This document shows positions 2,428 through 30,855 of a stretch of 64,000 nucleotides of DNA, one piece after another. Every line of letters starts with the position of its first letter. Position 1 is the stretch's first letter. A program made the translations under genes and the position numbers. The notes beneath the pieces were generated by a model. It ran no database searches. It had not been told where the DNA came from and worked only from the letters and a program-made list of their open reading frames with translations. This DNA comes from Escherichia phage P-GXEC-L2P5. Location: sequence record PQ843332.1, one strand, 5' to 3'.

Positions 2428-2431
2428 GATA

Positions 2432-3846: not shown

Positions 3847-6111
3847 ATGAGCTTAATTAAATTCGCTGTAACACGACCCGCTAAAAAAGGCGAAAAAGCC
3901 AGGGCGGAAAACTTCCAGATGACTACCGAAGAGTTTTTCGAATTTATCAATGATGCGAAAGAAATCTCCTCGGTGCATATCAACAAAACGGAAGATAAAG
4001 CGGAGTATGCGCGCCGCAAGCGTAAGGCTGATGGGATTGTGGCTTATACCAGTGACGGATTACGCCGCAAGACCAGTGCGGTGGATCGCTCGATCCTGTT
4101 CTTCGATATTGACCGTACCGACACCCGCACCCTGCGCCGCTGCCGTAAGGCGTTCATCGACGCGGGACTGGAACATGTATTTCACACCACAACCGGCGAT
4201 CGCCACCCGCTGAAAGGTGGCACGCGTTGCGCTCGTTTCCTGGTGCTCACTGACAAGCCTGTACCGGCTGAAGACCTGGGCCGCGTCCAGTATGCACTAT
4301 TACACCAACTGGGCCTGTCAGATGTGGACTTCGACGATTGCACGAAAGACACAAACCGCCTTATGTACCTGCCTCACCAGCAATCGGTTGTTAAGTGTCA
4401 CTACGGCAAACGTGCCCGCGTCCGTCGTCTGCTTCGCCTGGCTGATAAGCTGGGAGTGGAAAAAGAGGAAGTACGCCGCGAGCTTACCCATGGCGACGAC
4501 GCAGTGGCAGACGGCATTCTGGACTGGTGCTTCCAGGCCGGATTCGAGGAGTTATCTTCTGGTCGCGGTTATGAAGTGCCGTGCCCGAACGAACATCTGC
4601 ATAGTGGCGAAGGGTCCACCGCTATCATGGTTAAGGATGGCGAGATCCGTTTCAAGTGTATGCACACCGGCAACGAGTGCTGTTCCGAACTGAACAGACA
4701 CCAGCACCTGGCGCTACGTCTTATCGGGATCCCGGACCACCTGAACGTCGAACCGCACAACATGTCACGTAAGCAAATCGCCGCCATCCTCCCAGGACTG
4801 GACGACGAGGAAGTGGAATCGTGCTATGCGCATATCGTTGATGCGGTCGGAGACGGCGACGAGTACGGCGGATGTACGGACGCAGACTTGGACAACGAGC
4901 CGGTTGCACTGTTCAGCAAGCACGACCCGATCATCGAGGGGTTGATTAACTTTAAATCGACCTGGTATCTTGCCGGTGAGTCGAACATCGGTAAGTCGTT
5001 CTATGTGCTGGGGCAAATGGGTGCGGTTGCCGCGGGGATTCCGTTCGGCGGCGCGAAGGTCGTCCAGTCTCATTGCTTCTATTTCGACGCGGAAGGTGGC
5101 GAAGCCTCCAACCAGCGTAAGGAAGCATTGCAGATTAAATATGAGCACGACCTGGACAAGCTGCACATTATCGATCTGCAATCACGCGGCTGGGATATCA
5201 CCAGCAAATCCGGCTTGCGTGAAGTTATCAGCTTCATCAACCGCACCGCTAACGGCGAGCCGGTTGGCCTGGTGGCGTTCGACTCACTCAACCAGACTGT
5301 TGCGCTGCGGTCCGCCGATGCTAAACCGTTCGACGAGAACAACGCCAGCGATATGGGTGAAGTGGTCAAAGCGCTGAAGGCCATTGCGGAAAATACAGGC
5401 GGCAGTGCGGGCGTCATCCACCACCCGGCGAAGGGTGCAAACGGCAGCAGATCTCCCCGTGGGTCCGGCGCGCTGCATGGCGCTGTCGATTCTGCGTTCT
5501 TCCTCGAGCAACCGGACGACAATCAGCCGGGCCAATTGAACCTGTATCACGAAAAGGCGCGTAACGGCATCAAGCAAGCGCCGCGCGGCTTCGTCCTGCT
5601 CAAGTGCAAGGTTAAGGTGGATCTCCGCAAGTCCGAAGCGTTCGAATCACACCAGTCCACCAGCACCGGGCCTGACTTCGGCGACGTGGTTGCCGGTTGG
5701 GACGTCAAGCCAATTGCATCCACGCCACGCGACGAGACTCTTTATCTCGTACCTGTCGCCCTGGCACCGTTCGCCATCGAACAGGCGAAGGCCGCGGGCA
5801 AGGCCGCAGTTAAGGATGAGAACGCCGCAGGACCGCGCAATGAAAAAGAGAAAGTGCTTTATGCGGCACTGGAAAAACTGATGGAAGATAACCCGGACCA
5901 TACCGGATTCAGTAAATCGGCAATTGTCCGCCAGGCGGGATTGGCAAAAGGTGGCACATCGACGAAGGCAATAGACGATATGGTGGAGCGCGGCGTGCTC
6001 GGTTTTTATACAGATCCGCACACCGGGGCCATCTATGGGTCGTCGAATATCGTCATTAAAACGAATATACCCATCACGCTTTCTGCGACCGATGACGATC
6101 TGAAAGATTAA
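3847..6111 (+). CDS. DNA primase/helicase (AEP primase-polymerase domain plus RecA-like P-loop NTPase)
   Basis: LFFDIDRTD and HVFHTTTG primase motifs; Walker A-like GESNIGKSFYVLG; 754 aa; start region duplicated at about 3770/3847. Confidence 0.85.
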   Translation: MSLIKFAVTRPAKKGEKARAENFQMTTEEFFEFINDAKEISSVHINKTEDKAEYARRKRKADGIVAYTSDGLRRKTSAVDRSILFFDIDRTDTRTLRRCRKAFIDAGLEHVFHTTTGDRHPLKGGTRCARFLVLTDKPVPAEDLGRVQYALLHQLGLSDVDFDDCTKDTNRLMYLPHQQSVVKCHYGKRARVRRLLRLADKLGVEKEEVRRELTHGDDAVADGILDWCFQAGFEELSSGRGYEVPCPNEHLHSGEGSTAIMVKDGEIRFKCMHTGNECCSELNRHQHLALRLIGIPDHLNVEPHNMSRKQIAAILPGLDDEEVESCYAHIVDAVGDGDEYGGCTDADLDNEPVALFSKHDPIIEGLINFKSTWYLAGESNIGKSFYVLGQMGAVAAGIPFGGAKVVQSHCFYFDAEGGEASNQRKEALQIKYEHDLDKLHIIDLQSRGWDITSKSGLREVISFINRTANGEPVGLVAFDSLNQTVALRSADAKPFDENNASDMGEVVKALKAIAENTGGSAGVIHHPAKGANGSRSPRGSGALHGAVDSAFFLEQPDDNQPGQLNLYHEKARNGIKQAPRGFVLLKCKVKVDLRKSEAFESHQSTSTGPDFGDVVAGWDVKPIASTPRDETLYLVPVALAPFAIEQAKAAGKAAVKDENAAGPRNEKEKVLYAALEKLMEDNPDHTGFSKSAIVRQAGLAKGGTSTKAIDDMVERGVLGFYTDPHTGAIYGSSNIVIKTNIPITLSATDDDLKD

Positions 6112-6255
6112 ATCCTGCGCGCATTGGTTGCCGGTATGGGAATTCCCATATCGCTAAAAGGTTAAATTTTGCGCGCATTGGTTGCCATTTTGAGTGTTTT
6201 TATCGGGTCGTATTGGTTGCCGTGTAGTGTAAATATAATGAATAGTTATGCAGTT

Positions 6256-6428
6256 TTATTGCATAAAGTAAGCGGGACAGAAAGCGGGACAAACAAGGGG
6301 CGGGACAAAGCGGGACAGCACCCCCGTCCCGCCCCGTATGGCGCGGCCTGGAGAGGAGCGGGACAGGCGGGACAACCCCCAGTCTTTCAGACTAGACGGG
6401 GGTCAGCGGCCCCCCTCGTCTGAGACTG
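6256..6428. repeat. iteron array: six GCGGGACA direct repeats preceded by TGCATAAA, then a GC-rich imperfect hairpin
   Basis: GCGGGACA at 6272, 6284, 6299, 6310, 6358, 6367; inverted repeat cagtctttcagactagacggggg / cccccctcgtctgagactg. Confidence 0.7.
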
Positions 6429-6645
6429 AATAAAATCCGGGGATTGCAAAATACACGGCAGCATGATGCGAAGTGCGGTCGCGGATGAACTAGGCAACCA
6501 ATGCGAGTTGCATTATGCGAAGTGAAAAATGCGGTTTGCAGTCACAGCAGATAGCGATCAACTTTTTCATGCGCGTGATTAATATTGGTTGCGTTCCGCC
6601 TGGCACCTTGCTATATTGGTTGCACCCCAACATGAGGACTGAACA

Positions 6646-6972
6646 ATGAAAGCGATTATCTGGAATTACGCAATGGCTATGGCGGCGGCACAAGAAGCGG
6701 CGGAGTTCGCCGGTGAAGGAGCGGAAGCGGTCGAAAGACTATCGGCAGCGTGGTCCGTTGTTCGCGTCACGCAGCAGGCCATCGCTTGTATGCTGGAGCG
6801 CCGCTTCGACACGATGGCGGAGATCCAGCCACTGGCGAACGCAATCCAGGACTACGCGCTTGCATTTGCCCGTGAGCGCCTTGCGTATCGCTTCGGGATC
6901 GGCGAGACGGCAGTGACAAACGTCGCCCGGATTAAAGCCCAGCGTGAACTATTCGCCCAGCTTGCGAAATAA
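6646..6972 (+). CDS. hypothetical protein (108 aa, alanine-rich helical)
   Basis: ORF conserved in unit 2 (56423..56749). Confidence 0.55.
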   Translation: MKAIIWNYAMAMAAAQEAAEFAGEGAEAVERLSAAWSVVRVTQQAIACMLERRFDTMAEIQPLANAIQDYALAFARERLAYRFGIGETAVTNVARIKAQRELFAQLAK

Positions 6973-7209
6973 GGGGCCAAAATGAGCCGTTGACGCAGAC
7001 TCGCTACTTGCACCAGTTCGCAGCGCAACACGATTTCAGGGTGCGGACTTCCTTGCAACCAATGGGAATACGCAGACACGCTACTTGCACCAGTTCGCAG
7101 CAAAACACGATTTCAGGGTGCGGACTTCCTTGCAACCAATGGGAATTCGTATTACATTACGCCGGAAGCCCGCCGTTGAGCGGGTAGGCAAACACTGGAG
7201 ACTGAGCAA

Positions 7210-7464
7210 ATGACGCCAATGCAAATAACGCTAATGGCAGGGTATTCGCAGGAGTTTATCGACCTCGTATCCTGCTATGACGACTACACCCATTACGGCA
7301 TCGCTACGGTATGCGACGGCGACAACCTTACAGCCGACGAGCTTGATGAGGTCGACGACTACACTACCGAGGAACTTTGCGCGCTGATGTGCGGCGTGCC
7401 TGTATGGGCGAAAGAGTCCCCACTAGCCGCAGACGGCGACAACATGTACAGGTACAGAAAGTAA
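7210..7464 (+). CDS. small protein whose C-terminal ~45 aa mimic the DNA polymerase C-terminus; absent from unit 2
   Basis: DDYTTEELCALMCGVPVWAKESPLAADGDNMYRYRK versus polymerase DDYTTEELCALMCDLPIWAKGFPLAAEGDCMYRYRK. Confidence 0.5.
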   Translation: MTPMQITLMAGYSQEFIDLVSCYDDYTHYGIATVCDGDNLTADELDEVDDYTTEELCALMCGVPVWAKESPLAADGDNMYRYRK

Positions 7465-7536
7465 GATTATGAAAGCATCGATTAGCAAAACATTAAACTT
7501 CCCCGCAGCACGGTTAAACTTTAAGGAGACAGAACA

Positions 7537-8109
7537 ATGAAATTACTATTCCGCCGTAAGCACGATGGCCGTATCCTGAAGCCGATCCAAACCCTGGATT
7601 CCCACGTCCGCTTACAAAACGCGGCTGGCGGTCGGGTGTGGTGGGCAAAGAAATACACGCTGCCGGAAAACTTCGACGTACTAACTCACGATATCGAGCG
7701 CGGCGATGTGCTGCGTGATATTCGCGACGGCGGATTGTGGGTCGTCGAGTATGTCGGCCGTCATGGCCTGCGTATGCAATCCCGCAAGGATGGCGTAGTG
7801 GGTAACATACAGAGGGGTATGACGTACTTTGGGCTAATCAACTACGAGCGAGTGGGGCGCAAGTACAGCCTGCGCGACCGCCAGCCTCATGAGCGCGTTG
7901 AGTTCCGCAAGTCGCAGCCCGCGTATGCCACTTACGACGCGAGCAAAGTGATGGAGCCGATCCGCCAGGCCACGCGTGAGATAGTCAATCGCTTTGATGC
8001 CGTGACGAATGCACAGCGCCAGGCGCGGGAATACGGTGTGGGATTTATCCGTGTCGAACCAGACGGCAGCATGAAGGCCATCGACCCGCGCTCGGTGATT
8101 ATGAAATGA
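7537..8109 (+). CDS. hypothetical protein (190 aa)
   Basis: ORF with GGAGA RBS; conserved in unit 2 (57025..57567). Confidence 0.55.
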   Translation: MKLLFRRKHDGRILKPIQTLDSHVRLQNAAGGRVWWAKKYTLPENFDVLTHDIERGDVLRDIRDGGLWVVEYVGRHGLRMQSRKDGVVGNIQRGMTYFGLINYERVGRKYSLRDRQPHERVEFRKSQPAYATYDASKVMEPIRQATREIVNRFDAVTNAQRQAREYGVGFIRVEPDGSMKAIDPRSVIMK

Positions 8110-8252
8110 GTGCGTCTATCCGTGATATGCTCATGCACAACCGCTTTGAGATAGGCGGTCGGGTGTTTCGCAATTACTTCGTGGCGCGTGCATGGGCGCG
8201 CCATATTGGCAAACCGGAAGGGGCAATTCGATGCTATACGTCTTCGCGGTAG
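8106..8252 (+). CDS. small hypothetical protein (48 aa)
   Basis: ATGA overlap with the upstream stop; conserved in unit 2. Confidence 0.3.
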   Translation: MSASIRDMLMHNRFEIGGRVFRNYFVARAWARHIGKPEGAIRCYTSSR

Positions 8253-8316
8253 TATGTGGCGGTAGTCTGGCGGCCCTGGTGCTGTTGGCGTCGGTTATTA
8301 GTCTGGTTAAATACCT

Positions 8317-8616
8317 ATGGGGCAGATTATGATTCATGATGTGATTTATTGGTTTGGTATGGCCAGCATGTTATGCCTGGTTACGGGAGTGCTGGGCGCA
8401 ATATGGGTATTCCTGGTATGGCCTGCGGTGGAAGCTGCCAGCATTACCCGGATGACATTCGAGATCTACAAGCGCCGTGGAATAACGGAGCACCCGACCA
8501 GGCTTCGGATGTGGTGGCTGTGGTATCGGGATATGATAGGCGGTCGAACATTCGAAGCCGTCCGCTCATCCGGGTGGGAGTGGAAAGGCGTCGGCAAGTT
8601 GTCCGTTTTCGATTAA
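8317..8616 (+). CDS. small membrane protein (lysis-associated candidate)
   Basis: Hydrophobic segment FGMASMLCLVTGVLGAIWVFLVW; identical ORF in unit 2. Confidence 0.45.
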   Translation: MGQIMIHDVIYWFGMASMLCLVTGVLGAIWVFLVWPAVEAASITRMTFEIYKRRGITEHPTRLRMWWLWYRDMIGGRTFEAVRSSGWEWKGVGKLSVFD

Positions 8617-8668
8617 TTATGCAAGCGTGATATAGTCCCAGTGAGCTAAAACTTACTGGGACTTTTTT

Positions 8669-9007
8669 ATGGATAAGCTAAACGAGTGGTTATTCGCCCT
8701 CGCATGTCTGGCTGGCGGCTTCGTAGGCGCACGCATTCATGGCGAGGCTACGAAAGGGCCGCTAAACTTCGTGTTATATATCGTGGTCGGCTTCTTGTGT
8801 GCCGTTTTTGGCGCTCCAGCGATTGCCGAGTGGGCGGGCTTATCTGGTGAGCGCACTGTCGCCGGTTTGGGGTTCGTAACTGCAATCTTCTGGATGCCAA
8901 TAGCCGCCCGGATCAGGGAGACTATTGAGTCGTTCCGACTTCCGGGGGCGCAAAATGATTATCTCCGTCCTGTTGTTTGTTATCATCGGGGCTTCGTCCC
9001 TGTTTAA
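8669..9007 (+). CDS. holin-like membrane protein; C-terminus differs from unit 2 by a 1-nt indel
   Basis: Two or three predicted transmembrane segments; directly upstream of the endolysin. Confidence 0.5.
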   Translation: MDKLNEWLFALACLAGGFVGARIHGEATKGPLNFVLYIVVGFLCAVFGAPAIAEWAGLSGERTVAGLGFVTAIFWMPIAARIRETIESFRLPGAQNDYLRPVVCYHRGFVPV

Positions 9008-9031
9008 CGTGTATGCGCCGGGGGGCGCAAA

Positions 9032-9277
9032 ATGATTATCTCCGTCCTGTTGTTTGTTATCATCGGGGCTTCGTCCCTGTTTAACGTGTATGCGCCGTCC
9101 GTCCGGGATGGCATTTTCGGTCGGGTGCTATATCTGCTAACGGCGATGATCTGCGTTATCGGATTGTTGCAAACAGGAGACGTATCTGACACCACCTGGA
9201 CCGCGTTAATCTGGCTGTTTGCATTGCGCACGCTGCGTAATGCTGTTTTGAATGGGGTAAAACATGCGATTCAGTGA
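9032..9277 (+). CDS. small membrane protein (holin/antiholin candidate)
   Basis: MIISVLLFVIIGASSLF and LLTAMICVIGLL hydrophobic segments; overlaps the endolysin start. Confidence 0.5.
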   Translation: MIISVLLFVIIGASSLFNVYAPSVRDGIFGRVLYLLTAMICVIGLLQTGDVSDTTWTALIWLFALRTLRNAVLNGVKHAIQ

Positions 9278-9755
9278 CAACGGTCTACGATTTACGGCAG
9301 CATGGGAGACGTTTAGCCCGGTGCCGTATTTCGCGACTAAGAAAGAGCAGGCCCGCGGCCTGTACACCTGGGGTTATGGTCACACTGGCACTAACCCGCC
9401 TCGAAGCATTACCCGCGCGGAAGCGCTGGAGCTACTTAAGCGCGATGTGGCGTATGCTGAGGACTGGGTGAACAAATACGCGCATAATAGCATTAACCAG
9501 GCGCAATTCGACGCGCTGGTGGACCTGGTTATCAATGCAGGTCAAGGTCCGATCGTACCGGACCATATTGCCAATGACTTCGACGACGCGGTGCGCTTGG
9601 GCGACTGGGCGAAGGTCCGTGCTACGCTGCCGCAGTTCCGCAAGCAAGGCGGCGAAGTGCTTAAGGGTCTGGTACGCCGTGCAATCGGCAGACAGGCGTT
9701 GTTTGATGGTAAGCAGTGGGACGTTGCCGAACGAATCGGTCGTAACGCTGCATAA
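9264..9755 (+). CDS. endolysin, GH24 lysozyme family
   Basis: GYGHTG and NQAQFDALVDLVINAG motifs typical of lambda R / P22 gp19-type lysozymes. Confidence 0.85.
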   Translation: MRFSDNGLRFTAAWETFSPVPYFATKKEQARGLYTWGYGHTGTNPPRSITRAEALELLKRDVAYAEDWVNKYAHNSINQAQFDALVDLVINAGQGPIVPDHIANDFDDAVRLGDWAKVRATLPQFRKQGGEVLKGLVRRAIGRQALFDGKQWDVAERIGRNAA

Positions 9756-9771
9756 TACGAGGGGACACGAT

Positions 9772-9939
9772 ATGTTAAAAAGTATTCTTGATCATAATGC
9801 GGACGCGCTTGCCGCACTGGCTAAAACCGAAGACCCAGGCGCACGCGCTATCATCGCGGACTCTATCAACCACGCGGGGGTCTTTGATGCGAAGCTGCCA
9901 AGCCCACCACCGCCGGAAGAACCCGGCCCCGCAGCGTAA
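9772..9939 (+). CDS. small hypothetical protein (55 aa, proline-rich C-terminus)
   Basis: GAGGGGA RBS; no cysteine, so not an Rz1-type lipoprotein. Confidence 0.3.
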   Translation: MLKSILDHNADALAALAKTEDPGARAIIADSINHAGVFDAKLPSPPPPEEPGPAA

Positions 9940-9946
9940 ACAATCA

Positions 9947-9971
9947 AGCCCGGATAATACCGGGCTTTTTA
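9947..9971 (+). terminator. rho-independent terminator
   Basis: AGCCCGG-ataata-CCGGGCT followed by TTTTTAT. Confidence 0.75.
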
Positions 9972-9975
9972 TTGC

Positions 9976-10005
9976 TTGACTCGCAACCAACATAGGGGCC
10001 ATACT
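9976..10005 (+). promoter_or_regulatory. candidate sigma70-like promoter overlapping two GCAACCAA motifs
   Basis: TTGACT, 18-bp spacer, CATACT (TATACT in unit 2). Confidence 0.4.
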
Positions 10006-10176
10006 GCAACCAACCAACGAGAGGAGTAATCAAGATGGCACGTAAAGATATTTGGGTATTGGCAATCTGGACCACCGCAGCTTTCATCGGCATGGTTATT
10101 TGCGAATTGATATAGCCCGCCGCCATATGGACCGTGGTATATTGTCCACGGTCAACTAATCAGGAATTAATTAAAT

Positions 10177-11473
10177 ATGCACCCGCAAACTAAAATTACC
10201 GATGAGCAATTGATCACAGAAATTCAGGCAGGGACTACGGTTAAAGAGATTGCGAAGAAATACGGCATTGCACTTCGAAATGTCTATATGCGCAAAGCCC
10301 GCCTGTCGAAAAAGGGGATTGGTCATGGCAATTATGCCGTGATCCGTAAGCGCGTTGCCGATGGCTTTGGGGTTAAGCGCGTATCGGCCCTGGTGCGCGG
10401 TAATGGCGAAGAGGTCATGTCGTGGGTCATCACTGAGCAGGACAAGGAGCGCCAACTCGAAGCTATGCGCGCTGTTGTCGAGGGTATGAACAGCGAAATC
10501 ACACCGGCAGCGCCAGTAAACGCCCCGCCAGTACCGATCCCATGCGCGCTGTTGTCGAGGGTATGAACAGCGAAATCACACCGGCAGCGCCAGTAAAAGC
10601 CCCGCCAGTACCGATCCAGGCGCTAGACTTGCTCAACCTGTACACCGTGTCCGACTTCCACCTGGGTATGCTGGCATGGGGCGAGGAGACTGGCGAAGAT
10701 TGGGATATGGCGATCGCCGAAGACCTGTTCTACCGCTGGTTTGTCGAAGCCTTCGCCCGCGCACCGGACGCAGGCACTGCCGTGATCAATATCCTCGGCG
10801 ATATGGCGCACTTTGATAGCCTTGATGCCGTCACACCGGCAAGCGGTCACGTATTGGACGCCGACACCCGATACCAGAAGTTAGTCCGCTACATGATCCG
10901 CATGGTGCGCAACGTGGTAGACCTGGCGCTGCAAAAACACCACAAAGTCAAACTGCTAATCGTCCAGGGTAATCATGACGAGTCAGGCATGATTTGGCTT
11001 GCTGAGATGTTCAACACGCTGTACGAGAACGAGCCGCGCGTCGATGTGGATACGATGAGTCGGGCATGATTTGGCTTGCTGAGATGTTCAACACGCTGTA
11101 CGAGAACGAGCCGCGCGTCGATGTGGATACGTCCCCGGACGTCTACAAGATGGTGCAGCACGGTAAGACCACACTATTTTTCCACCACGGGCACAAAGCG
11201 CGATTTGACGCTATCGAGCCGGTCATGATTTCGAAATTTCGTGAGGCGTTCGGGTCCAGCCAGTACAGCTATGCGCACGTAGGACACCTGCACCACCAGA
11301 AGATTGTCGAATCGCGCAACATGATTGTTGAACAGCACCGCACGCTTGCCGCGAAGGATGCCTACGCCAGCCGAGGCGGTTGGATGAGCGGACGCAGTGC
11401 AAACGTGATAACCTATAGCGCCAACTACGGCGAAGTAGCGCGCTTAACCATTAGCCCGGAAATGTTGAAATGA
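10177..11473 (+). CDS. HTH domain fused to calcineurin-like metallophosphoesterase; frame broken by duplications near 10490..10600 and 10980..11075
   Basis: N-terminal HTH TVKEIAKKYGIALRNVYMRKARL; phosphoesterase motifs DFHLGM, GDMAHFD, GNHDE, HHGH, GHLHH; reads as one ORF in unit 2 apart from a single duplication. Confidence 0.7.
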
Positions 11474-11715
11474 TCAGACAAGTATTCATGAGCACGCAGG
11501 CCACCCGCCTGAAAGAACTACGCAAGCAACTCGAAGGCTTGCGCCGATTTGAACGAACGGCAGCGGCAGTCGGAATGTCGATGGACGAGAGGATCGAAAT
11601 ACTGTCGCAAATACGCTACACAGAAGGCGCGATAAGAGAAGTACAAAGCATGTTAACCCGATACTACGGGCGCGGATACTATCGCAAATACGCTACACAG
11701 AAGGCGCGATAAGAG
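11470..11715 (+). CDS. small hypothetical protein present only in unit 1
   Basis: ORF with internal artefact duplication; the whole ~290-bp segment is missing from unit 2. Confidence 0.35.
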
Positions 11716-11767
11716 AAGTACAAAGCATGTTAACCCGATACTACGGGCGCGACGTTTAAACCGCGCA

Positions 11768-11793
11768 GCCCCACCGATTTGGTGGGCTTTTTT
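11768..11793 (+). terminator. rho-independent terminator
   Basis: CCCACC-gattt-GGTGGG followed by CTTTTTTGT. Confidence 0.7.
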
Positions 11794-11798
11794 GTGCC

Positions 11799-11807
11799 TG
11801 TTATAAT
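11799..11807 (+). promoter_or_regulatory. extended -10 promoter element upstream of the terminase genes
   Basis: TGtTATAAT perfect extended -10; conserved in unit 2. Confidence 0.45.
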
Positions 11808-11855
11808 CCCCTTAGATGGCAGGGCCGTCTCTTATGTTGCCGATGGTCGGCGCAT

Positions 11856-12428
11856 ATGCACAAAAGGGCTTATATCATGGCAGAAATTAAAGTTAAAGGC
11901 CGTCGCGCTAAACTGGACGGACGAGTAGCAGTTACCCCGCGCCGTAAACCAGGCGAGCAAACCGAGCACACCAATCTCGGACCTGAAATCGAGTACGGAA
12001 AGCGCCGTAAAGGCGGCAAATGTGGACGCCCTACTGACTACCGATCCGTTTACTGCGACCAGCTTCGCCGCTATTTTGCCGACGCCGACGCATGGCAGGT
12101 CAACTACTCCGATAAAGGCGCTGCGCAAGTAATCCCCCGGAACAAAATGCCAACCTTCGGCCGATTTGCCGCTGAAATCGGCGTGGGTGTAGCTTGCTTG
12201 TATCGCTGGGCGCGTGCGCATGAGGAGTTTGCCGAGGCGATGGCGGACGCAATGGAGTTGCAGAAAACTTTCCTGATGGAAGCTGGCGGCGTAACCATCG
12301 CGGCGGGCTTCGCTACGTTCCTGCTTAAAGCAAACCACGGCGTCCGCGACGATGTACCGCTGGATGACGACGAAGATGATAACGGCGACGTAGTTGTCGA
12401 ACCTTCCGGCAAAGGTCAGGGTGAATAA
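11856..12428 (+). CDS. terminase small subunit
   Basis: GRPTDYRSVYCDQLRRYFADA region and acidic C-terminus; immediately upstream of TerL; alternative start 11877. Confidence 0.65.
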   Translation: MHKRAYIMAEIKVKGRRAKLDGRVAVTPRRKPGEQTEHTNLGPEIEYGKRRKGGKCGRPTDYRSVYCDQLRRYFADADAWQVNYSDKGAAQVIPRNKMPTFGRFAAEIGVGVACLYRWARAHEEFAEAMADAMELQKTFLMEAGGVTIAAGFATFLLKANHGVRDDVPLDDDEDDNGDVVVEPSGKGQGE

Positions 12429-13890
12429 TGCGTAACTATGCGGCAGAACACCGCGCACTGGAACGCGCGATCGCAAAGCGTAACCGACCGCCACGCCCGA
12501 CACGCGTTGCGCAGGCCGTCCGCCTTTACCAGCCAGATTGCCTTCCGCACCAGGTCGAACTGCTGCGTGACACGAAGACTAAAATCCTCGGCCTGTGTTC
12601 CGGCTTCGGTGGTGGGAAGTCGTGGGTCGCAGCCCGTAAGGTAATCCAGCTTCTGACACTTAACCCCGGTCATGATGGCATCGTAACAGAACCGACGATT
12701 CCCCTCCTGGTTAAAATCATGTATCCGGAATTGGAAAAGGCATTCGACGAGGCGGGCTTCCGGTGGAAGTTCAATAAGCAGGACAAGATCTATAACGTGC
12801 TTGTGAAAGGCAAATGGACCCGCGTTATCTGTGAGTCAATGGAGAACTATACCCGCCTGATCGGGGTTAATGCCGCGTGGATTGTTGCCGACGAGTTCGA
12901 TACCACGAAGCAAGACGTCGCGCTGGCGGCATATCACAAATTGCTCGGTCGTCTGCGTGCTGGCTTCGTCCGCCAGTTCGTCATCGTGTCAACGCCTGAA
13001 GGCTACCGGGCGATGTATCAAATTTTCGAAGTGGAGAAGGATAGCCAGAAGCGTTTGATCCGGGCGAAGACCACCGATAACCACCACTTACCGGCAGACT
13101 TTATCGACACGCTGCGCAGCCAATACCCGGCTAACCTGATTGATGCGTACTTGAACGGCCTGTTTGTCAACCTTACGTCGGGCGCGGTGTACAAGATGTT
13201 CAACCGGGAGGAGAACGCCAGCACCGAAGAAGTGCAGCCGGAAGACACGCTGATTATCGGCATGGACTTTAACGTCACGAAGATGGCGGCGGTCGTGTAC
13301 GTCAGACGGCAGCGCATCACCGAAAACAAGGAGTTCCGCGACGAGATCCACGCAGTGGATGAATTTGTGGACCTGTTTGATACCCCGGCTATGATTGAGG
13401 CGATCGAGGAGCGCTACCCCGATCATTGTGCTGCCGGTCGTGTTGTCGTTTACCCGGATAGCAGCGGCAAGTCTCGCAAGACTGTTAACGCATCGTCGTC
13501 AGATATCGCACAACTGGAAGACGCGGGCTTCGAGGTGGAATACGACAGTGTTAACCCACCTGTGAAAGACCGATTGATCGCGATGAATACTATGATGTGC
13601 AACTCGAAGGGTGTGCGCCAGTATTTGTTAACCCGCCTGTGAAAGACCGATTGATTGCGATGAATACGATGATGTGCAACTCGAAGGGTGTGCGCCAGTA
13701 TTTTGTCAACCTGGATAAATGCCCTACACTAGCGAAATGTCTGGAACAGCAGGTTTACGACCTGAAGAAAGGCGAGCCGGATAAAACCGCCGGTGTGGAC
13801 CACATGAACGATGCCGCGGGCTATCCAATTGCGCACCTGTTCCCAGTGATTCGCCCAATCGCCGTTGTTCCAACTGTAGACTTCTACTAA
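12428..13890 (+). CDS. terminase large subunit (ATPase plus nuclease); 3' part frame-broken by duplication near 13560..13680
   Basis: Walker A GFGGGKS, Walker B IVADEFD, C-terminal nuclease region VDHMNDAAGYP. Confidence 0.85.
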
Positions 13891-13900
13891 GGAAACGACC

Positions 13901-15652
13901 ATGACCGTTAACGTAGACAACCAGCACCCGCTCTATGCGCGCATCGCGCCAGAGTGGAAAATGATCCGTGACTGCGTAGCAGGGGAGCGCGTGACAACCA
14001 GCACCCGCTCTATGCTCGCATCGCGCCAGAGTGGAAAATGATCCGTGACTGCGTAGCAGGGGAGCGCGCCGTGAAGGCGTGCGGGCCATTATACCTGCCA
14101 CACCCAGCAAGCGGCGACACCACCGACCCTAAATCGCGTGCGCGTTATAAGGCGTATAAGCAGCGCGCCGTCTTCCTGAACGCCACCGCCAGAACCCTTA
14201 ACGCACTGTTAGGCGTGGCCTTCGCGAAGCCGGTGAGTATTGACCTTTCCGGGGCAATGGCTGACCTGATTGATGACGTAGACGGCAGCGGGATGCCACT
14301 GGCGCAACTCCTGCGCGGTGCTATGTCGGAAGTGCTGCAATCAGGCCGTGCGGGCTTTATGGTGGACTACGATCGCCAGGCGCATTTTGATGAACTGGGT
14401 AACGTAGTTCCGCAGACAGCCGCCGAGATGGCGTCACACCGCCCTCTTATCCGCCTGTACACGGCAGAACAGATCATCAACTGGCGGCAGACCAACGGCG
14501 TCGATACGCTAATTGTGCTGAAGGAAACGGACGAAATCAGCACCGAAGACCCGGACGACTTCGCAAACCACGAAGTAACAATCTGGACCGAGCTTCGCAT
14601 GATTAACGGTGCGGCACACGCCCGCCGCTGGTACTACAACGCGGACACGTCCGAGGTGCAAATGGACTTGCCGCGCGGCTTCACCCGAACCGACCTTGTA
14701 CCACTGGTGGATGCTGCCGGTAACGCGCTTACGCAACTACCGTTTTGCTGGTGCGGTGCGGTGGACAACAACGCAACGCCTGACGCCGCTCCGCTGGCGG
14801 ATATCGCATCCATCAACATTAAGCACTACAACGCCGAAGCGGACGTCGCCGAGATTGCGCACATCGTGGGCCAGCCTACCCTAGTTGCGACGGGCTTGAC
14901 CCAATCATGGGCGGACAAGAACCTGAAGGGCGGCATTGCCCTCGGTGCGACTAAGGGCGTTATCCTGGGCCAGAACATGGACGCTAAACTGATCCAGGCG
15001 GAGGAGCGCAACTTGTCTGTTGCACTGTGTGAGCGTCGCGAATTGCAAATGGCTAAACTTGGCGCGGCCCTGGTCGAGAAGGGGACCGCACCTAAGACGG
15101 CAACGGAAGCGGCCTACGATGCGCAGTGGCTAAACTGGGCGCGGCCCTGGTCGAGAAGGGGACCGCACCTAAGACGGCAACTGAAGCGGCCTACGATGCG
15201 CAGACTGATAACAGTATCCTGTCACTGATTGCCGGTAACGTCGAGAAGGCTTTCAACCGTGCGCTGCAAATCGTCCAGCTATTCACGGGCGACACCGCCG
15301 ACCAGCGTGTGACGCTGAATAAGTTCTACACCGAAATCACGGTTGATGCGCAGCTTATGACCGCGATGATGTCGGGTGTGCAGACGGGTACGGTCCGCCT
15401 GGCTGACTTCATCAAGTGGATGATGGCGCAGGGTGTCATCGACGACTCGCAAACCGTCGAGCAGGTGGAAGACGAATTGCGAAATCAGAATCCATTGCCT
15501 CAAATGTCCCCGTTATTGATGACTCGCAAACCGTCGAGCAGGTGGAAGACGAACTGCGAAATCAGAATCCATTGCCTCAAATGTCCCCTGATGCGGTAGA
15601 ATCTACCGAAGAAGACCCGGACAAGGTAGCGGACAATGGCGAAGACAATTAA
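13901..15652 (+). CDS. portal protein; frame broken by three duplications
   Basis: Large ORF directly after TerL and before the head morphogenesis gene; assignment by position and size only. Confidence 0.6.
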
Positions 15653-16816: not shown

Positions 16817-17138
16817 GTATGCAGCGATTGGGCTGGTTATCGGTCTGGTGGTAGGATTCTGGCTAGGTGACTCCTATCGCGCTGGCGTAGTGGCGGAGGC
16901 GGCGCAAGAAGCGCAAGCAGAAGCCCAACGGCAGCAAACTAAAGTTATTGAGCGCTCCGTGCAGGCCGAACAAGCCCGCGACGTAGAATACCGGACTATC
17001 ACGAAAGAGGTTGTTAAATATGTTACGCGCCCTAACCGCCCTGATTGTAGTTTTGATGCTGAGCGCGTGCGGATCAAGCAACGTGCCGTTGATGCCGCTA
17101 ACGGAGTCGGCACTGCGACCGCCGTGCAAGTTCGATAG
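16809..17138 (+). CDS. i-spanin (Rz-like)
   Basis: N-terminal transmembrane segment AAIGLVIGLVVGFWLG then coiled-coil AEAAQEAQAEAQRQQ; GTG start with GGGGG RBS (alternative ATG 16779). Confidence 0.55.
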   Translation: MIKYAAIGLVIGLVVGFWLGDSYRAGVVAEAAQEAQAEAQRQQTKVIERSVQAEQARDVEYRTITKEVVKYVTRPNRPDCSFDAERVRIKQRAVDAANGVGTATAVQVR

Positions 17139-17327
17139 AGCGCGTGCGGATCAAGCAGCGTGCCGTTGATGCCGCTAACGGAGTCGGCACTGCGACCGCC
17201 GTGCAAGTTCGATAACCCGTCCGCGGACCCCGACGAAGATTTGATGATTGACGTGAAAAATATGGAATGCGGGGCGAAGCTGAGGGCGCAGGTCCTGGAG
17301 TTGCAGCAGATAATTCGGGGGCCGTAA
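17020..17327 (+). CDS. o-spanin lipoprotein (Rz1-like) overlapping the i-spanin in the +1 frame; interrupted by duplication 17140..17214
   Basis: Signal peptide with lipobox LSAC|G, proline-rich mature part, AAGAGG RBS. Confidence 0.55.
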
Positions 17328-17342
17328 TGGCCCCCTTTTATT
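17316..17342 (+). terminator. rho-independent terminator
   Basis: GGGGGCC-gtaat-GGCCCCC followed by TTTTATT. Confidence 0.75.
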
Positions 17343-18105
17343 AGCGCGGAATACCGCAGATTTCGTTTAACGTCTTCACGTCCAGTGCCACCGCCGTGGA
17401 CTTCGGCTTGTCCGGGTATGGAATAAACTGTTCCACTTCAGGCCACGCCTTGATCAGCTTCTTATCGGTATTGTGCATATCCAGCACACCGGTAACGGTT
17501 AGTTTGAACGCGTCATACTTAGCTCGCAACTCGCGGCGGGACTTGTCGTTGCGATCCAGGCACTTACAGAAATCATGGTCCGCCGGGTAGTCTACGCGAC
17601 CGCGCGGAAGATATATCGGCAGCGATTTTCCGTCCTCGTCCACTTCGCACACTGAAGCCAGCATAACTTCCTCGTACCCCGGTACGATATCACCGAGATC
17701 GGGAGATAGCTTGTTCATATATTTCTCTTCCCAGTATCCGCGGTGCAGGCGGTATCGGTATCCATCGCCGCTCAATGATACGGTGCGAACATTACCGCCT
17801 GCGTTGATATCGAATCCGGCGCTATAAACGCGGCCGATGCCTTTTGGCCGGTCGGAGTTATAGCTATACGTCGCCTTGTCGGTGTAAACGCTAACGCCAT
17901 ACATCTGCGACTGGTTATCGCGGATTTCTGCGATATATGCGCGTAACTCGGCGAACGTGCGAATGCCTTCCGGCATACAGTCCAGCGTAATGGCGTACGC
18001 CAAGTCGCGAGAGTCCATCATGATGGATTTTGCTTCGGTCGCGATTTCATGGTCGCGCAGGATGTTAGCCAGAATCTGGTTTTTAATGTCTTTCGTCAGT
18101 CTCAT
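17341..18105 (-). CDS. hypothetical protein (254 aa), opposite-strand moron gene
   Basis: ORF 17341..18192 with the likely start at MRLTKDIK (AAGAGG RBS); no recognisable motif. Confidence 0.5.
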   Translation of the reverse strand: MRLTKDIKNQILANILRDHEIATEAKSIMMDSRDLAYAITLDCMPEGIRTFAELRAYIAEIRDNQSQMYGVSVYTDKATYSYNSDRPKGIGRVYSAGFDINAGGNVRTVSLSGDGYRYRLHRGYWEEKYMNKLSPDLGDIVPGYEEVMLASVCEVDEDGKSLPIYLPRGRVDYPADHDFCKCLDRNDKSRRELRAKYDAFKLTVTGVLDMHNTDKKLIKAWPEVEQFIPYPDKPKSTAVALDVKTLNEICGIPR

Positions 18106-18119
18106 TTGTGTGTCCTCTT

Positions 18120-18281
18120 TTAGTGGTTGTATAATTCGCCGCGTGCGTCGGCATCTTCCATTTGGTGTAGTGCGTGTTTCTGGTCCTGGCAAGGAATCCA
18201 GCGTTCCTCTAATTTATGCCAGAAGTAAAACACCCCGTTATCCAGCTTAATCTCGGCAATACCGTTATTGAAAGTTAGCAT
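18120..18281 (-). CDS. small hypothetical protein (53 aa), first gene of the moron unit
   Basis: GAGGG RBS; ATTGGTTGCA tandem motif immediately upstream. Confidence 0.4.
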   Translation of the reverse strand: MLTFNNGIAEIKLDNGVFYFWHKLEERWIPCQDQKHALHQMEDADARGELYNH

Positions 18282-18430
18282 TTTGTTACCCTCATTTGTT
18301 GGTATGCAACCAATATACTGCAACCAATCCACCAATGCAAGCAAATTTTGCGATTATTTTTATCGCTGATAATATTAGAAGCGTGAAGTCGAGCGGGTGG
18401 CCTGCTCTGCCACAATCCCAGGGGGATAGC

Positions 18431-19212
18431 ATGAAACTTACTAAAGCAGAATATGACGCGTTGCCGGAAGGTATGAAGGCGCTTTTTGTTGCCGATGGCG
18501 ACGGGTATAAATCAACGTTCATGACCGCAGAAGAAGTACAGGCGGAAATCAAGGGTCTGAAAGACAACAACGCTAAGCTGGTGAGCGAGAAGAAAGCAGA
18601 AGCTGAACGCCGCGCCGAAGCTGAGCGCCTTGCGAAAGAGAAAGAGGAAGCCGCCGCGCGCAAAAATGGCGACCTCGAAGCGATCGATAAGTCCTGGAAA
18701 GATAAGTTTGCGAAACACGAAGCAGACACATCGGGAAAAATCGAAGCCTACCGCAAGCAGATCCACGACCTAACCATCGGCAGCGCTGCCAAAGACCTGG
18801 CATCGAAGCTATTCGGTAAGAATGCGGGCATCATGCAACGCCACGTAATGGACCGCCTGACGCTGGAAGACGGCGAAGACCGAAGCTGTTCGGTAAGAAT
18901 GCGGGCATCATGCAACGCCACGTAATGGACCGCCTGACGCTGGAAGACGGCGAAGACGGCAGCTTGAAAGTGCGTGTCTTGCAGGATGGCAAACCGTCCG
19001 CGCTGACTATGGAAGAGCTTGAAAAAGAGTTCCGTAATAACGCCGATTTTGCATCCGTCCTGGCTGGCACGCCAGCCGGTGGTGCGCCGAGCAAACCGAC
19101 GCAGGTTGTCGAAGATGTGAAGTCGAAAATCACTATGGGCCATAGCTTCGGTATCACTGACCTTACGAAACAGGCGGGGGATATCATCGCGAAGATGGGC
19201 GACGACGAGTAA
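18431..19212 (+). CDS. scaffolding protein
   Basis: Charged coiled-coil protein (AEAERRAEAERLAKEKEEAAARK) directly upstream of the major capsid gene; duplication near 18815..18960. Confidence 0.6.
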
Positions 19213-19216
19213 GCAG

Positions 19217-19243
19217 ATCGCCCGCGAAAGCGGGCGATTTTGC
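19217..19243 (+). terminator. weak terminator or attenuator
   Basis: ATCGCCCGC-gaaa-GCGGGCGAT with a short T run. Confidence 0.4.
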
Positions 19244-19386
19244 TAGCGCGGAAATCTAAGGTAACATTAACGTCACTGGGCGAATGCTCACAACTCAAAG
19301 GATTTCGATATGTCTTTAACAGTGTTCCAGCGTAAACTCGTTACCGCGGTTACGGGGCGAATGCTCACAACTCAAAGGATTTCGAT

Positions 19387-20641
19387 ATGTCTTTAACAGT
19401 GTTCCAGCGTAAACTCGTCACCGCGGTTACGCAAATGATCCCCGACAACCTGAACGTGTTCAACGCCGCCGCCAATGGCGCTGTTGTTCTCGGTACTGGT
19501 GAAGTGCTGAAGGATGTTATTGAGAAAATGTCCGTAGGCTTGATCGCCAACCTCGTTACCGACCGTAACGCCTACGCCCCTGTCGGCACTCCGGCAACCG
19601 CGAAAGTTCTGGCGCGTATGCTGACCAACTCGGTTAACCTTTCCGCAAAAGTGGGTCCGGTAGCAATCACTAAGGCTATGATGGCTAAGATCGAAACCAA
19701 CCCAACTCAGTTAACCTTTCCGCGAAAGTGGGTCCGGTAGCAATCACTAAGGCTATGATGGCTAAGATCGAAACCAACGTTAACAGCGTTGCGGCTGAGA
19801 TTGCGGCACAGGCTACTCAAGCGATTATGCTGCACTACCTGAAAGCTGGTATCGGCGCAAGTAAAGCGGCGATCGAAAGCAACGCAGCGGCAAAATACAC
19901 CCAACCGGCGCGCGTTGACGGCGTTGGCGGTCGTACCTTCCCGACCCTGTCGAAAGCAACGCAGCGGCAAACTACACCCAACCGGCGCGCGTTGACGGCG
20001 TTGGCGGTCGTACCTTCCCGACCCTGGCAGACTTCCCGCTGGCGGCTTCTAAGTTCGGCGATCAGGCGTCTTTGATTAAGTCCTGGTTTATGGACGGCGT
20101 TACCTGGGCAAACTTCATTGCGTACCAGGCACTCCCTTCCGCTGAACAGGTATTCGCAATTGGCGATCTACAGGTAATGGGTGATGGCCTGGGCCGTCGA
20201 TTCATTATCTCCGATGCCGCTGCCGATTCTATGGGCGCTGGTAACATGCTGGGTCTGGTTCCTGGCGCGGTTGCAGTTACCACCAACGGCCTCGATATGC
20301 TGGCGCAGGAGAAAGGCGGTAACGAGAACATCGAACGCTGGTGGCAGGGCGAGTTCGACTTCAACGTGGCCGTTAAAGGCTACCGTCTGAAGGCGTCCGC
20401 TCGTACCCCGATCGAAGGTGTGCGCTCGTTCAAGCTGGACGATATCACCACTTCCGCTAACTGGGAACTGGACCAGGGCCAGGTAGACAACGCACCGGCA
20501 ACCGTGCAGGATGTTGGCGCTGTGGGGGATGGCGATACTAAAGGCCGTCGTAAGACCCAGGCCGCACAGGCAGTGCCTACCCGCCACATCAAGGAAACGG
20601 CTGGCGTACTGGTTACGCTGACTGCGACTACCGCGTCTTAA
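19387..20641 (+). CDS. major capsid protein; frame broken by duplications
   Basis: About 370 aa once duplications are collapsed; follows scaffold and is followed by a strong terminator; assignment by position. Confidence 0.7.
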
Positions 20642-24673: not shown

Positions 24674-25160
24674 TGAAGCGGGACAAGCGGGACGTCCCGT
24701 TTTGTCCCGCCCCTCAAAAACTGCATACTTATTTACTATTATTGCATAAACTAAAAGCGGGACAAGCGGGACGTCCCGATCTGGCACCCCTCTGAAAAGC
24801 GCATACCTATTCAGTTTTACTGCATAAACCAAACGGGACAAAAAGCGGGACAAACAAGGGGCGGGACAAAGCGGGACAGCACCCCCGCCCCGCCAGTGCT
24901 GCCGCGGGGTTTAGCCGATCGGGACAGGCGGGACAAAGCCCAGTCTTTCAGACTAGACGGGGGTCAATGGCCCCCCTCGCGCGGTTTTTAGCCGATCGGG
25001 ACAGGCGGGACAAAGCCCAGTCTTTCAGACTAGACGGGGGTCAATGGCCCCCCTCGTCTGAGACTGAATAAGGTTTGTTTTAAATTCGCTGATACAATGT
25101 TTCAGACTAGACGGGGGTCAATGGCCCCCCTCGTCTGAGACTGAATAAGGTTTGTTTTAA
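24674..25160. repeat. non-coding iteron/hairpin region between the chaperone and tape measure genes
   Basis: agcgggacaagcgggacgtcccg twice (24677..24699, 24756..24778) with 12-bp palindrome CGGGACGTCCCG; GCGGGACA x4 at 24833..24895; GC-rich hairpin repeated; TGCATAAA boxes; AT-rich tract 24720..24760. Confidence 0.7.
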
Positions 25161-25211
25161 ATTCGCTGATACAATGTCAACCGGCAACTGCATAAAAAAG
25201 GGGGCTGCATA

Positions 25212-30247: not shown

Positions 30248-30855
30248 CCACATTTAAATTATACGGCGTCTTAGGGCGTCGTTTTGGTAAAGTGCACAAG
30301 CTGGATTGCTTCACCCCGGGCGAAGGTATCACAGGCCTATGCGTGAAGCTGCCTGGCTTACAGGACTTTCTAATGTCGGCCCACCTGGAAAATATTATGT
30401 TCAAGGTGCGCAAAGGCAATCACACAATGACCGGATACGACGAGTTAGGAGAGTTCCACGGCGACCGCGTAGTTACCATCGCACCGGTTATGACCGGCGC
30501 AAAACGCGGACTAGGCCAATTACTGGCGGGCGTAGCCATCGTGGTGGCGTCGTTCTACACCGGCGGGCTTGCTACTGCCGCTTTCGGAGCTTCCGCCGCG
30601 ACCGCTGCCGCTATCGGTACGGCAACGTTTTCGTTCGGGATGTCGATGGCGCTGGGTGGCGTTATGCAATTGCTGTCACCGCAACCGAAAGGATTGCAGA
30701 CACGGCAGGACGTGGATAACAAGGCGTCTTATGCGTTCGGCGGACCGGTAAACACGACCGCGCAAGGTACGGCACTTGGTGTATTATGGGGCGAGCGTGA
30801 GATCGGCGGCGCTATTATTTCCGCCGGAATCGTAACCGAGGACTTGAACGAATGA
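30244..30855 (+). CDS. tail assembly protein I-like
   Basis: ATGA overlap with the K stop; glycine/alanine-rich hydrophobic middle; TGA/ATG overlap with J. Confidence 0.6.
   Translation: MTTFKLYGVLGRRFGKVHKLDCFTPGEGITGLCVKLPGLQDFLMSAHLENIMFKVRKGNHTMTGYDELGEFHGDRVVTIAPVMTGAKRGLGQLLAGVAIVVASFYTGGLATAAFGASAATAAAIGTATFSFGMSMALGGVMQLLSPQPKGLQTRQDVDNKASYAFGGPVNTTAQGTALGVLWGEREIGGAIISAGIVTEDLNE

Follow-up and report, generated by a model that had tools for sequence, protein, structure and literature searches.

Among the known systems closest to the element reported here are two described sets of short, repeated intergenic sites. In the cluster A phage L5, the repressor gp71 has operators and stoperators (Brown et al. 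1997, PMID 9312049, as cited in PMC11447400), and the phages TLS, T1 and Rtp carry 21-nucleotide (nt) intergenic direct repeats, aaATAGCACnnnTTGnTAAAA (PMC11447400). We analyzed 64,000 nt of DNA of Escherichia phage P-GXEC-L2P5 (sequence record PQ843332.1); this whole stretch is called the window below. A preliminary description had pointed to positions 18282-18345 as one instance of a recurrent intergenic motif, and had taken the motif for an operator of a phage regulator or a phage-specific promoter element. The motif, named here the box, is real and most likely the binding site of a phage regulator, an apparently undescribed element that would serve a conventional kind of gene control. Judging from the DNA and protein sequences, we lean toward reading it as an operator, present in about 12 promoters of the virulent Dhillonvirus phages, for a phage-encoded DNA-binding protein (best candidate gp46) that mainly occludes the host polymerase.

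By BLAST, the window belonged to the genus Dhillonvirus (HK578-like virulent coliphages with genomes of ~44 kb). Positions 3000-8000 were 99.8% identical to phages slur05 and slur06, and positions 17000-20000 were 98.4% identical. Dhillonviruses are virulent coliphages that are isolated very often, are present in the BASEL collection and are candidates for therapy and biocontrol. The literature describes the genus as lytic, and full-text searches turned up no account of the box, nor of promoters, transcription starts, transcriptomes or a transcription programme in Dhillonviruses. The 64 kb of the window are a chimeric, faulty assembly and not one clean genome. Positions 1-14500 and ~49700-64000 hold the same genome segment twice, 87-96% identical, with a second strain represented. 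Exact head-to-tail duplications of 76-78 base pairs (bp) occur in dozens across the window (for example, 8944-9020 = 9021-9097, 30823-30899 = 30900-30976 and 49454-49530 = 49531-49607), and many open reading frames (ORFs) are broken or frameshifted. These duplications resemble k-mer overlaps left untrimmed where unitigs were joined, and the repeat period of 49.7 kb equals a genome of ~45 kb plus ~4.6 kb of duplications. The assembly itself has duplicated two box copies, giving 7055 (from 7132) and 49514 (from 49591), and the second strain accounts for the seven copies in 52850-59757. Because of the faulty assembly, the counts were repeated on the clean annotated genomes of slur05 (L001, NC_028901), HK578 (L002), SSL-2009a (L003) and SO-1 (L004), in none of which an integrase or an immunity repressor is annotated. 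The diverged syntenic relatives L005, L007, L009 and L011 were also compared; about half of their length aligns to slur05, at ~72% identity. Box-bearing phages have both Sodalis and Escherichia as hosts.

The 9-mer ATTGGTTGC/GCAACCAAT occurred 22 times in the window, while dinucleotide-preserving shuffles (n = 100) gave an expectation of 0.84 ± 0.87 and none of the 100 reached 22. Its 8-mer core, TTGGTTGC, was present in 31 copies. Twenty-seven of these lay in the 11.9% of the window without mapped genes (binomial p = 2e-21), as did 20 of the 22 9-mers. The clean genomes agreed with this bias: 18 of the 22 copies in slur05 fell in the non-coding 8.2% (p = 1.5e-16), and the intergenic share was 12/19 in HK578, 13/21 in SSL-2009a and 15/21 in SO-1, where several of the copies counted as coding fall in gene ends or in doubtful small ORFs. 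Thus the motif is recurrent and intergenic as had been claimed, and in the window and in the clean genomes alike its density within genes is far below that between genes. Each genome carried 19-22 copies, 12-18 of them intergenic, and the same ~12 loci held the box in all four clean genomes. A logo built from 45 intergenic copies of four divergent genomes held information only within 10 asymmetric positions, with uninformative flanks. Position -1 was A in 73% of the sites and never T, and position +9 was never T. The box is a compact asymmetric 10-mer, A-TTGGTTGC-V. It stands singly or in pairs and in either orientation; in SO-1, ~11 copies were co-directional with transcription and 8 were opposed. 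Palindromic arrangements, namely TTGGT-N5-ACCAA and GCAACCAA-N4-TTGGTTGC, were found at few loci only.

The positions listed in the preliminary description were right within ~30 nt, except that near 2958 there is only a variant with two mismatches, ATTGGTTAA (2963-2971). Exact 9-mers start at 3231, 6123, 6177, 6212, 6494, 6584 and 6615, and again at 18306, 18320, 35705, 38971, 40943, 40960 and 44287. The copies given near 9984 and 10008 exist as 8-mers (9983 and 10006) and not as 9-mers. A perfect palindrome, GCAACCAA-ccta-TTGGTTGC, was found exactly as described at 38960-38979. Also correct was the statement that some copies are followed directly by TATATT or TATAGT, which on the box's own strand appear as TTGGTTGC-ag-TATATT (18320) and TTGGTTGC-ac-TATAGT (38960). 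Further copies, absent from that list, were 7055/7132, 49514/49591/49607, the coding copies 26612 and 30114, and the seven in 52850-59757.

The box was conserved well beyond the window. In an unbiased k-mer count, GCAACCAA was the top or near-top 8-mer in each diverged relative, and ATTGGTTGC was the top 9-mer in L011. Intergenic copies made up 11/14, 10/13 and 9/10 in relatives of ~72% identity. When the early divergent region of seven genomes was aligned, the block tagaTTGGTTGC and the adjacent -35 hexamer were invariant amid diverged flanks. The same block was invariant in 20 unique sequences, in which box columns had a conservation of 1.00 and other non-coding columns 0.81 (p = 4e-5). The TATATTGGTTGCAcaCCAAca arrangement of the flagged locus was kept in slur05, HK578, SSL-2009a and SO-1. 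A direct pair of boxes 17 nt apart, with a -10 hexamer 2 nt later, recurred at other loci in L005 and L011. In three genomes of the divergent clade (L005:14400-14450, L007:13960-14010 and L009:4510-4560), one box is fused to a conserved stem, GCATCCTG-(13 nt)-CAGGATGC, of which the loop differs between genomes. Profiling by a viral-contig scan for TTGGTTGC-N(1-25)-TTGGTTGC was set aside: it returned at least 120 loci, and among the matches listed two were Dhillonviruses and the remainder were unrelated coding repeats with no protein in common with slur05.

The placement of the box relative to promoters was then evaluated. Promoters were predicted as sigma-70-type with a position-weight matrix on the strand of the downstream gene, and the register of a box counts from the first base of the -10 hexamer to the start of the 8-mer. 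Thirty-seven of 45 intergenic copies were in register with a -10-like hexamer, against 45% of other intergenic positions (p = 3e-7), and so the suggested link to gene starts is borne out by way of predicted promoters. The registers peaked at +4/+5 forward, -27 forward, -10/-9 and +6/+7 reverse. At -27, the forward box contributes its last four bases, TTGC, as the beginning of the -35 hexamer (P_B, P_C, P_G and P_I), giving TTGCnn with a 17-nt spacer. At -10/-9, a box of either orientation ends 1-2 nt before the -10 hexamer (P_A, P_C, P_F, P_L and P_E). At +4 to +7, a box of either orientation covers the edge of the -10 hexamer and the start site (P_A, P_B, P_E and P_D). Altogether the box spans ~-28 to +10 of the predicted core promoters, in several registers and both orientations, and diverged genomes show these registers again at other loci. 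The box goes beyond a -35 hexamer, because TTGG is conserved upstream of TTGC and because copies stand at other registers. It was reversed at promoters with a canonical -35 (5/5 copies) and forward at those of the TTGC type (9/11); the Fisher test gave p = 0.005, with copies within one promoter not independent. A strict consensus scan calls canonical promoters, for example TTGACA-18-TATCAT at 3253 to 3224, in the spacer of which a box lies. The full box is lacking at two canonical promoters, the early one that reads rightward into gp46 and the second of the leftward ones, and promoter-like sites within the structural operon are without it.

At the flagged locus, one promoter, P_A, was predicted on the minus strand at 18312-18340, consisting of the -35 hexamer TTGCAT (18335-18340), a 17-nt spacer and the -10 hexamer TATATT (18312-18317). 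Its matrix score was 11.4, and the strict consensus scan missed it (its -35 matches 3/6). Two boxes, both on the minus strand, lie within it. The box at 18320-18327 is in the spacer and ends 2 nt before the -10 hexamer (register -10), and the box at 18306-18313 overlaps the last 2 nt of the -10 hexamer and the predicted start site (register +4). On the minus strand, P_A is predicted to drive a small ORF (ATG at 18281) and then a gene (17344-18105) for a protein with nucleotide-modification-associated domain 5 (Nmad5). This gene slot (17344-18281, minus) runs against the strand of the late structural genes that surround it, and different phages carry different genes there. Its equivalents are HK578 L002:5078-5500, SSL-2009a L003:5080-6213 and SO-1 L004:5082-5600; the slot of the window holds the Nmad5 gene and the small ORF, and those of HK578 and SO-1 hold unrelated genes, annotated 'possible moron'. 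P_A and both of its boxes are conserved although the slot genes change. Back to back with P_A is a box-free promoter-like site on the plus strand, recognized by eye at 18348-18375 (TTGCGA, 16-nt spacer, TAATAT). The -35 hexamers of the two are 7 nt apart, and the plus-strand site is directed toward the genes for scaffold and major head (start 18431). A protein occupying the P_A boxes might affect this late promoter through promoter competition.

A candidate for the binding protein was found next to the early promoters. Thirty-nine slur05 proteins, a part of the complement, were scanned against Pfam, and ten of these also against PHROGs. Among the 39, gp46 was the only protein with a recognizable sequence-specific DNA-binding domain. 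The gp46-like gene (3430-3759, plus; 53124-53453 in the second strain) encodes 109 residues, comprising a long coiled-coil helix and a C-terminal helix-turn-helix (HTH), and lies directly upstream of the helicase-primase gene (3847-6111), with 10 nt between the two genes in slur05. It has been annotated variously as 'transposase', 'resolvase' or 'Gam'. In Pfam, its C-terminal 40 residues matched HTH_23 and Sigma70_r4_2 at ~27 bits. The AlphaFold2 model (predicted local distance difference test score, pLDDT, 85.8) has one very long helix, residues 22-79, that leads into an HTH of two helices, and gp46 is likely a dimer because the long helix has coiled-coil character. Comparison of the model with the PDB by fold and sequence yielded no informative homologue: apart from a vimentin-like coiled coil, the matches were confined to the HTH (LuxR/NarL/GerE, resolvase, IS21 and TnpE types). 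The C-terminal 60 residues hardly vary, while among close phages the N-terminal ~45 (encoded at 3430-3570 and 53124-53260) are hypervariable or have given way to unrelated sequence, a pattern suggestive of diversifying selection, or of module swapping, at a surface that contacts a partner. Every box-bearing genome examined contained gp46. The family is tiny and limited to this phage lineage, with 24 clusters in 5.8 billion proteins; full-length representatives numbered only 3 in 1.8 billion proteins, where other matches were generic HTH only. Just downstream of the -10 hexamer of gp46's rightward promoter is TTGGT-N5-ACCAA, or in the divergent clade the full GCAACCAA, and gp46 likely regulates its own expression through this site, as far as the sequence indicates. 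The product gp47, also a universally conserved small early protein, was rejected as the binder, being highly acidic, of low complexity and of variable length. Its gene (2435-2950, minus) is the first of the leftward early operon, and the family members (115-239 residues, no Pfam family) have an N-terminal helix, a variable low-complexity linker rich in K, E and D and a very acidic C-terminal domain, a layout reminiscent of DNA-mimic or host-takeover proteins.

These results are consistent with the following mechanism. A phage-encoded sequence-specific protein, best represented by gp46 made from the rightward early promoter, would bind the boxes, and the bound protein would mainly occlude host RNA polymerase. 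Occlusion is proposed because most boxes overlap the -35, spacer, -10 or +1, including those of near-consensus promoters. Early and middle units would thereby be turned down, among them the moron, replication and lysis promoters, in a role like that of Cro but extended over the whole genome and including autoregulation. At promoters with only the TTGC of the box as a -35, binding could instead help polymerase. Of the two functions that had been put forward, operator and phage-specific promoter element, the operator fits better: the box occurs in both orientations and several registers, and a dedicated promoter element ought to keep to a single position. Several observations weigh against occlusion by gp46. 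Three or four copies in the non-coding region B, described below, have no convincing promoter. Most box pairs are direct repeats with variable spacing (9-35 bp), yet the rigid helix-to-HTH fold of the gp46 model suggests a symmetric dimer. The recognition helix reads VSTIKNWIYRK in P0025 (locus L011), the most distant full-length homologue, and RSTIRQWAK in HK578 gp45, against VSTVRSWVRN, while the box is identical; all versions have only TGIN-x-ST-[VI]-[RK]-x-W in common. A -35 supplied by the box matches the consensus at 3/6 positions and such promoters were not called by the strict scan, so that they could need an activator rather than be repressed. Finally, repression of every promoter would leave the expression of the late genes to be accounted for.

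The possible need for an activator bears on the opposite sign of control. The box could be a positive, phage-specific promoter element, at which a bound factor, gp46 or another, replaces or assists sigma-70 region 4 at a poor -35 hexamer, so that promoters with a box would form a middle or late class subject to activation, not to shut-off. Activators of this kind are MotA/AsiA of T4, Mor/C of Mu and p4 of phi29. The forward orientation of 9 of the 11 copies at TTGCnn promoters, at the fixed registers -27, -10 and +4, agrees with such an element, as do the failure of the strict scan to call these promoters, which activator dependence would predict, the retention of the -27 register where the flanks have diverged (as in L011 and L005) and the match of the gp46 HTH to Sigma70_r4_2. 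The canonical promoters of gp46 and of the second leftward unit, both without a full box, would fit an early-to-middle cascade. Against it, boxes also lie in the spacer or over +1 of near-consensus promoters (TTGACA-18-TATCAT and TTGACC-17-TAAATT), where an activator is needless and a block of polymerase is expected; neither orientation nor register is unique, and among the scanned proteins no MotA, AsiA or Mor family match was found. We regard a purely positive element as unlikely, although it is the main rival to the operator reading. Somewhat more doubtful still is a combination of both signs, in which the box and gp46 would reprogram promoters genome-wide and so execute the early-to-middle/late switch of a phage without its own RNA polymerase or sigma factor, by activation at the -35 and block elsewhere. 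Here the sigma-region-4-like HTH would read the box at three fixed registers of nearly every phage promoter. With a forward box at the -35, gp46 would stand in for sigma region 4 and activate weak -35 promoters, and a reversed box in the spacer or at +1 of canonical promoters would block polymerase. The hypervariable N-terminal domain of gp46 would contact host RNA polymerase or escape host defence.

The constancy of the box beside a varying recognition helix (L011 and HK578) is what would be expected if gp46 were employed elsewhere and the box were read by an enterobacterial host transcription factor or nucleoid protein recruited by the phage. The palindrome TTGGT-N5-ACCAA at three start sites also agrees with a host factor, and the half-site ATTGGT resembles half-sites of the GntR/FadR type, such as the PdhR box ATTGGT-N3-ACCAAT. 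The spacing is N5 and not the N3 of PdhR-type boxes, however, and no E. coli factor is known to us that recognizes this 10-mer. A density of about 20 boxes per 44 kb, in one phage lineage only, argues for a dedicated phage-encoded factor, and hosts that include both Sodalis and Escherichia also speak against a host reader, which we consider improbable. Resemblances to sigma-54, CytR and PdhR sites were set aside, since spacing or conserved positions did not fit. The boxes might also be iterons or initiator sites of a replication origin, with gp46 or the C-terminal portion of the helicase-primase binding them and bringing in the helicase-primase; overlap with promoters would then be secondary to the origin role, as it is for DnaA boxes. 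Five or six copies do lie close together in region B, a non-coding stretch of 480-534 bp that directly follows the helicase-primase gene, 10 nt separate the end of the gp46 gene from the helicase-primase gene in slur05, the C-terminal ~220 residues of the helicase-primase have no domain assignment, and the SO-1 depositors marked regions A and B as repeat regions. But each region B has a separate iteron-like array of 6-7 GCGGGACA units, direct and inverted, with a conserved GC-rich hairpin, which is present also in region A, and region A holds no TTGGTTGC at all. The array switches to GGTGCCA in L007, L009 and L011 while TTGGTTGC is constant, about two-thirds of the boxes stand at scattered promoters elsewhere in the genome, and the spacings within region B (54, 35, 31 and ~90-280 bp) are not helically phased. 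An origin function of the box is thus very improbable. L005 and L007 have the same gp46 HTH and different iterons, so that the iteron switch does not track the HTH; gp46 does not appear to read the iterons, and the box appears as a separate promoter-linked system. A role at the RNA level, as a 5' hairpin formed by TTGGT-N5-ACCAA, is unlikely, since at the +4 register the predicted start falls inside or beyond the box and the left arm would presumably not be transcribed; no Rfam family was matched anywhere in the window.

Regions A and B are probably replication origins in their own right. Region A (~24800-25180) lies between the tape-measure chaperone and tape-measure genes and region B at 6240-6480; in SO-1 they correspond to L004:11214-11597 and 40178-40657, ~29 kb apart. 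Both also contain 'ctgcataaa' repeats and the GC-rich hairpin cagtctttcagactagacgggggg...ccccc.cgtctgagactg. Three plus-strand boxes, at 6124, 6178 and 6213 (6124-6220), stand at the left end of region B directly after the stop codon of the helicase-primase gene, and TATAAT (6234-6239) follows the third after 13 nt. The equivalent of 6124-6220 in relatives has a box pair flanking a -10-like hexamer in either orientation. The window (6117-6170) and slur05 have an extra ~54 bp with one added box (6124-6131), which looks like a local duplication of 'taaatyytgcgcgcaTTGGTTGCc' and is not found in SO-1, HK578, SSL-2009a or the second strain of the window. A single minus-strand box inside region B (6494-6501) overlaps no convincing promoter. 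P_B (6585-6623, plus) has two boxes. The box at 6585-6592 gives the -35 hexamer TTGCGT (6589-6594), and the second (6616-6623) overlaps the -10 hexamer TATATT (6612-6617) and the start site. The register pair -27/+4 of P_B is kept in SO-1, HK578 and SSL-2009a, and the promoter drives the gp44-like gene (6646), then small genes and the lysis cassette. Upstream of the gp43-like gene lies a minus-strand box at 7132-7139, duplicated at 7055-7062, where TTGCAACCAA gives a plus-strand -35, TTGCAA (7130-7135), followed by TACATT (7153-7158).

The leftward early promoter P_L (3224-3253, minus; TTGACA, 18-nt spacer, TATCAT) matches the consensus at 11/12 positions and had a matrix score of 15.3. Its box (3232-3239, plus) is in the spacer, reversed relative to P_L, and ends 2 nt before the -10 hexamer. 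Transcription from P_L would pass through gp47 first and then through the genes for exonuclease, SSB and DNA polymerase. Between the tandem leftward promoters 3357-3329 and 3253-3224 is a hairpin, GCGCCG...CGGCGC, followed by T9 (~3265-3300, minus), which reads as a predicted intrinsic terminator; the upstream promoter would then make only a ~50-nt transcript, either a small RNA or an attenuated leader. The hairpin and T-run are kept at the same position in L007 and L009, with a different stem sequence. P_D (plus) follows the terminator of the lysis cassette, upstream of the exonuclease and terminase genes, and consists of TTGACT (9976-9981), an 18-nt spacer and CATACT (10000-10005), with two reversed boxes on the minus strand (9983-9990 and 10006-10013). 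Its counterpart in the second strain (59743-59772) reads TTGACT-18-TATACT. The minus-strand box at 35705-35712 gives the -35 hexamer TTGCAA (35703-35708) of a lipoprotein (Cor-like) promoter with AATACT as -10 (35680-35685), and the gene downstream has a Pfam Phage_lipoprotein match. In P_F (minus), the exact inverted pair of 38960-38979 accompanies the -35 hexamer TTGCAA (38976-38981) and the -10 hexamer TATAGT (38952-38957). P_C (minus) has a direct pair of boxes 17 nt apart (40943-40967) at registers -27 and -10, with TTGCAT (40958-40963) and TATATT (40935-40940), and lies upstream of the ligase and methylase genes. The P_I box (44287-44294, minus) is within the 3' end of the VRR-NUC gene, upstream of a Lar-like gene, and gives the -35 hexamer TTGCTG, with TATAGT as -10 (44262-44267). 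P_E, the promoter of the SSB and DNA polymerase genes, had a matrix score of 14.5 and consists on the minus strand of TTGACC (49623-49628), a 17-nt spacer and TAAATT (49600-49605); its two reversed boxes (49591-49614, plus) flank the -10 hexamer, the copy at 49514 being the assembly duplicate. The second-strain copies (52850, 55991, 56271, 56362, 56393, 56947 and 59750) are at the same loci as those of the first strain.

The DNA polymerase gene (45215-48403, minus) is a continuous ORF of 1062 residues in the window, against 763 in slur05. An insertion of ~700 nt (~46202-46903) overlaps an internal ORF of 252 residues (46161-46919), and in the SO-1 record its equivalent is labelled as an ORF-containing group I intron. 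The window gave no match above threshold to an Rfam intron family, and Pfam showed DNA_pol_A only. The insertion may be an intein, an intron or a homing element.

One 10-bp box marks essentially all non-structural promoters and thereby gives a map of transcription units. It also offers a testable regulator-operator pair and a handle for engineering, by way of orthogonal repressible promoters and the switching off of moron or lysis genes.

When compared with known systems, the box shares features with each and all the features of none of the L5, T1-like, lambda, T4 or iteron classes. As in lambda, where Cro and CI act, sites of an HTH protein (a candidate one in Dhillonvirus) lie over the -35 and -10 of divergent early promoters, the regulator gene adjoins the divergent promoter region, autoregulation is likely and a turn-down of early genes in the lytic cycle is expected. 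Lambda OR and OL, in contrast, are six 17-bp dyads bound by dimers, while Dhillonviruses have ~20 asymmetric 10-mers genome-wide, few of them palindromic; of the traits of an operator set, overlap with the -35, -10 or +1 was found and dyad symmetry of ~14-17 bp was not. With T4 MotA promoters the box has in common a phage-specific, TGC-containing box in the -35 region beside a good -10 and a poor -35. The MotA box stands at ~-30 in one orientation, whereas the Dhillonvirus box is varied in placement, is centred near -35.5 when at the -35, and occurs also in promoters with a canonical -35. No MotA or AsiA match in Pfam or PHROGs was found among the small proteins scanned, which do not cover every protein.

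L5 and Dhillonvirus both have short asymmetric sites, some 20-30 copies, nearly all in short intergenic regions, and in both a copy overlaps the -35-like TTG of an early promoter. In L5, a phage HTH protein is reported to bind single non-palindromic sites; in Dhillonvirus the binder is only a candidate. L5 is temperate and gp71 is its immunity repressor, whereas Dhillonvirus is virulent with no annotated integrase or immunity repressor, and stoperators lie in one orientation downstream of promoters and block elongation, whereas the Dhillonvirus boxes are within core promoters in both orientations. The T1-like phages (PMC11447400) and the Dhillonviruses are both virulent coliphage siphoviruses without their own RNA polymerase or sigma factor. 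Both have ~18 intergenic copies with TTG inside, associated with gene starts and experimentally unexplained in function. The TLS repeats differ in sequence and length, are co-directional and lie ~76 nt upstream of start codons (PMC11447400), while the Dhillonvirus box has 10 bp, occurs in both orientations and is placed relative to -10 hexamers. The parallel with the 21-nt repeats of the T1-like phages indicates that genome-wide promoter-linked boxes may be a common, unstudied means of timing gene expression in small virulent siphoviruses that use host RNA polymerase.

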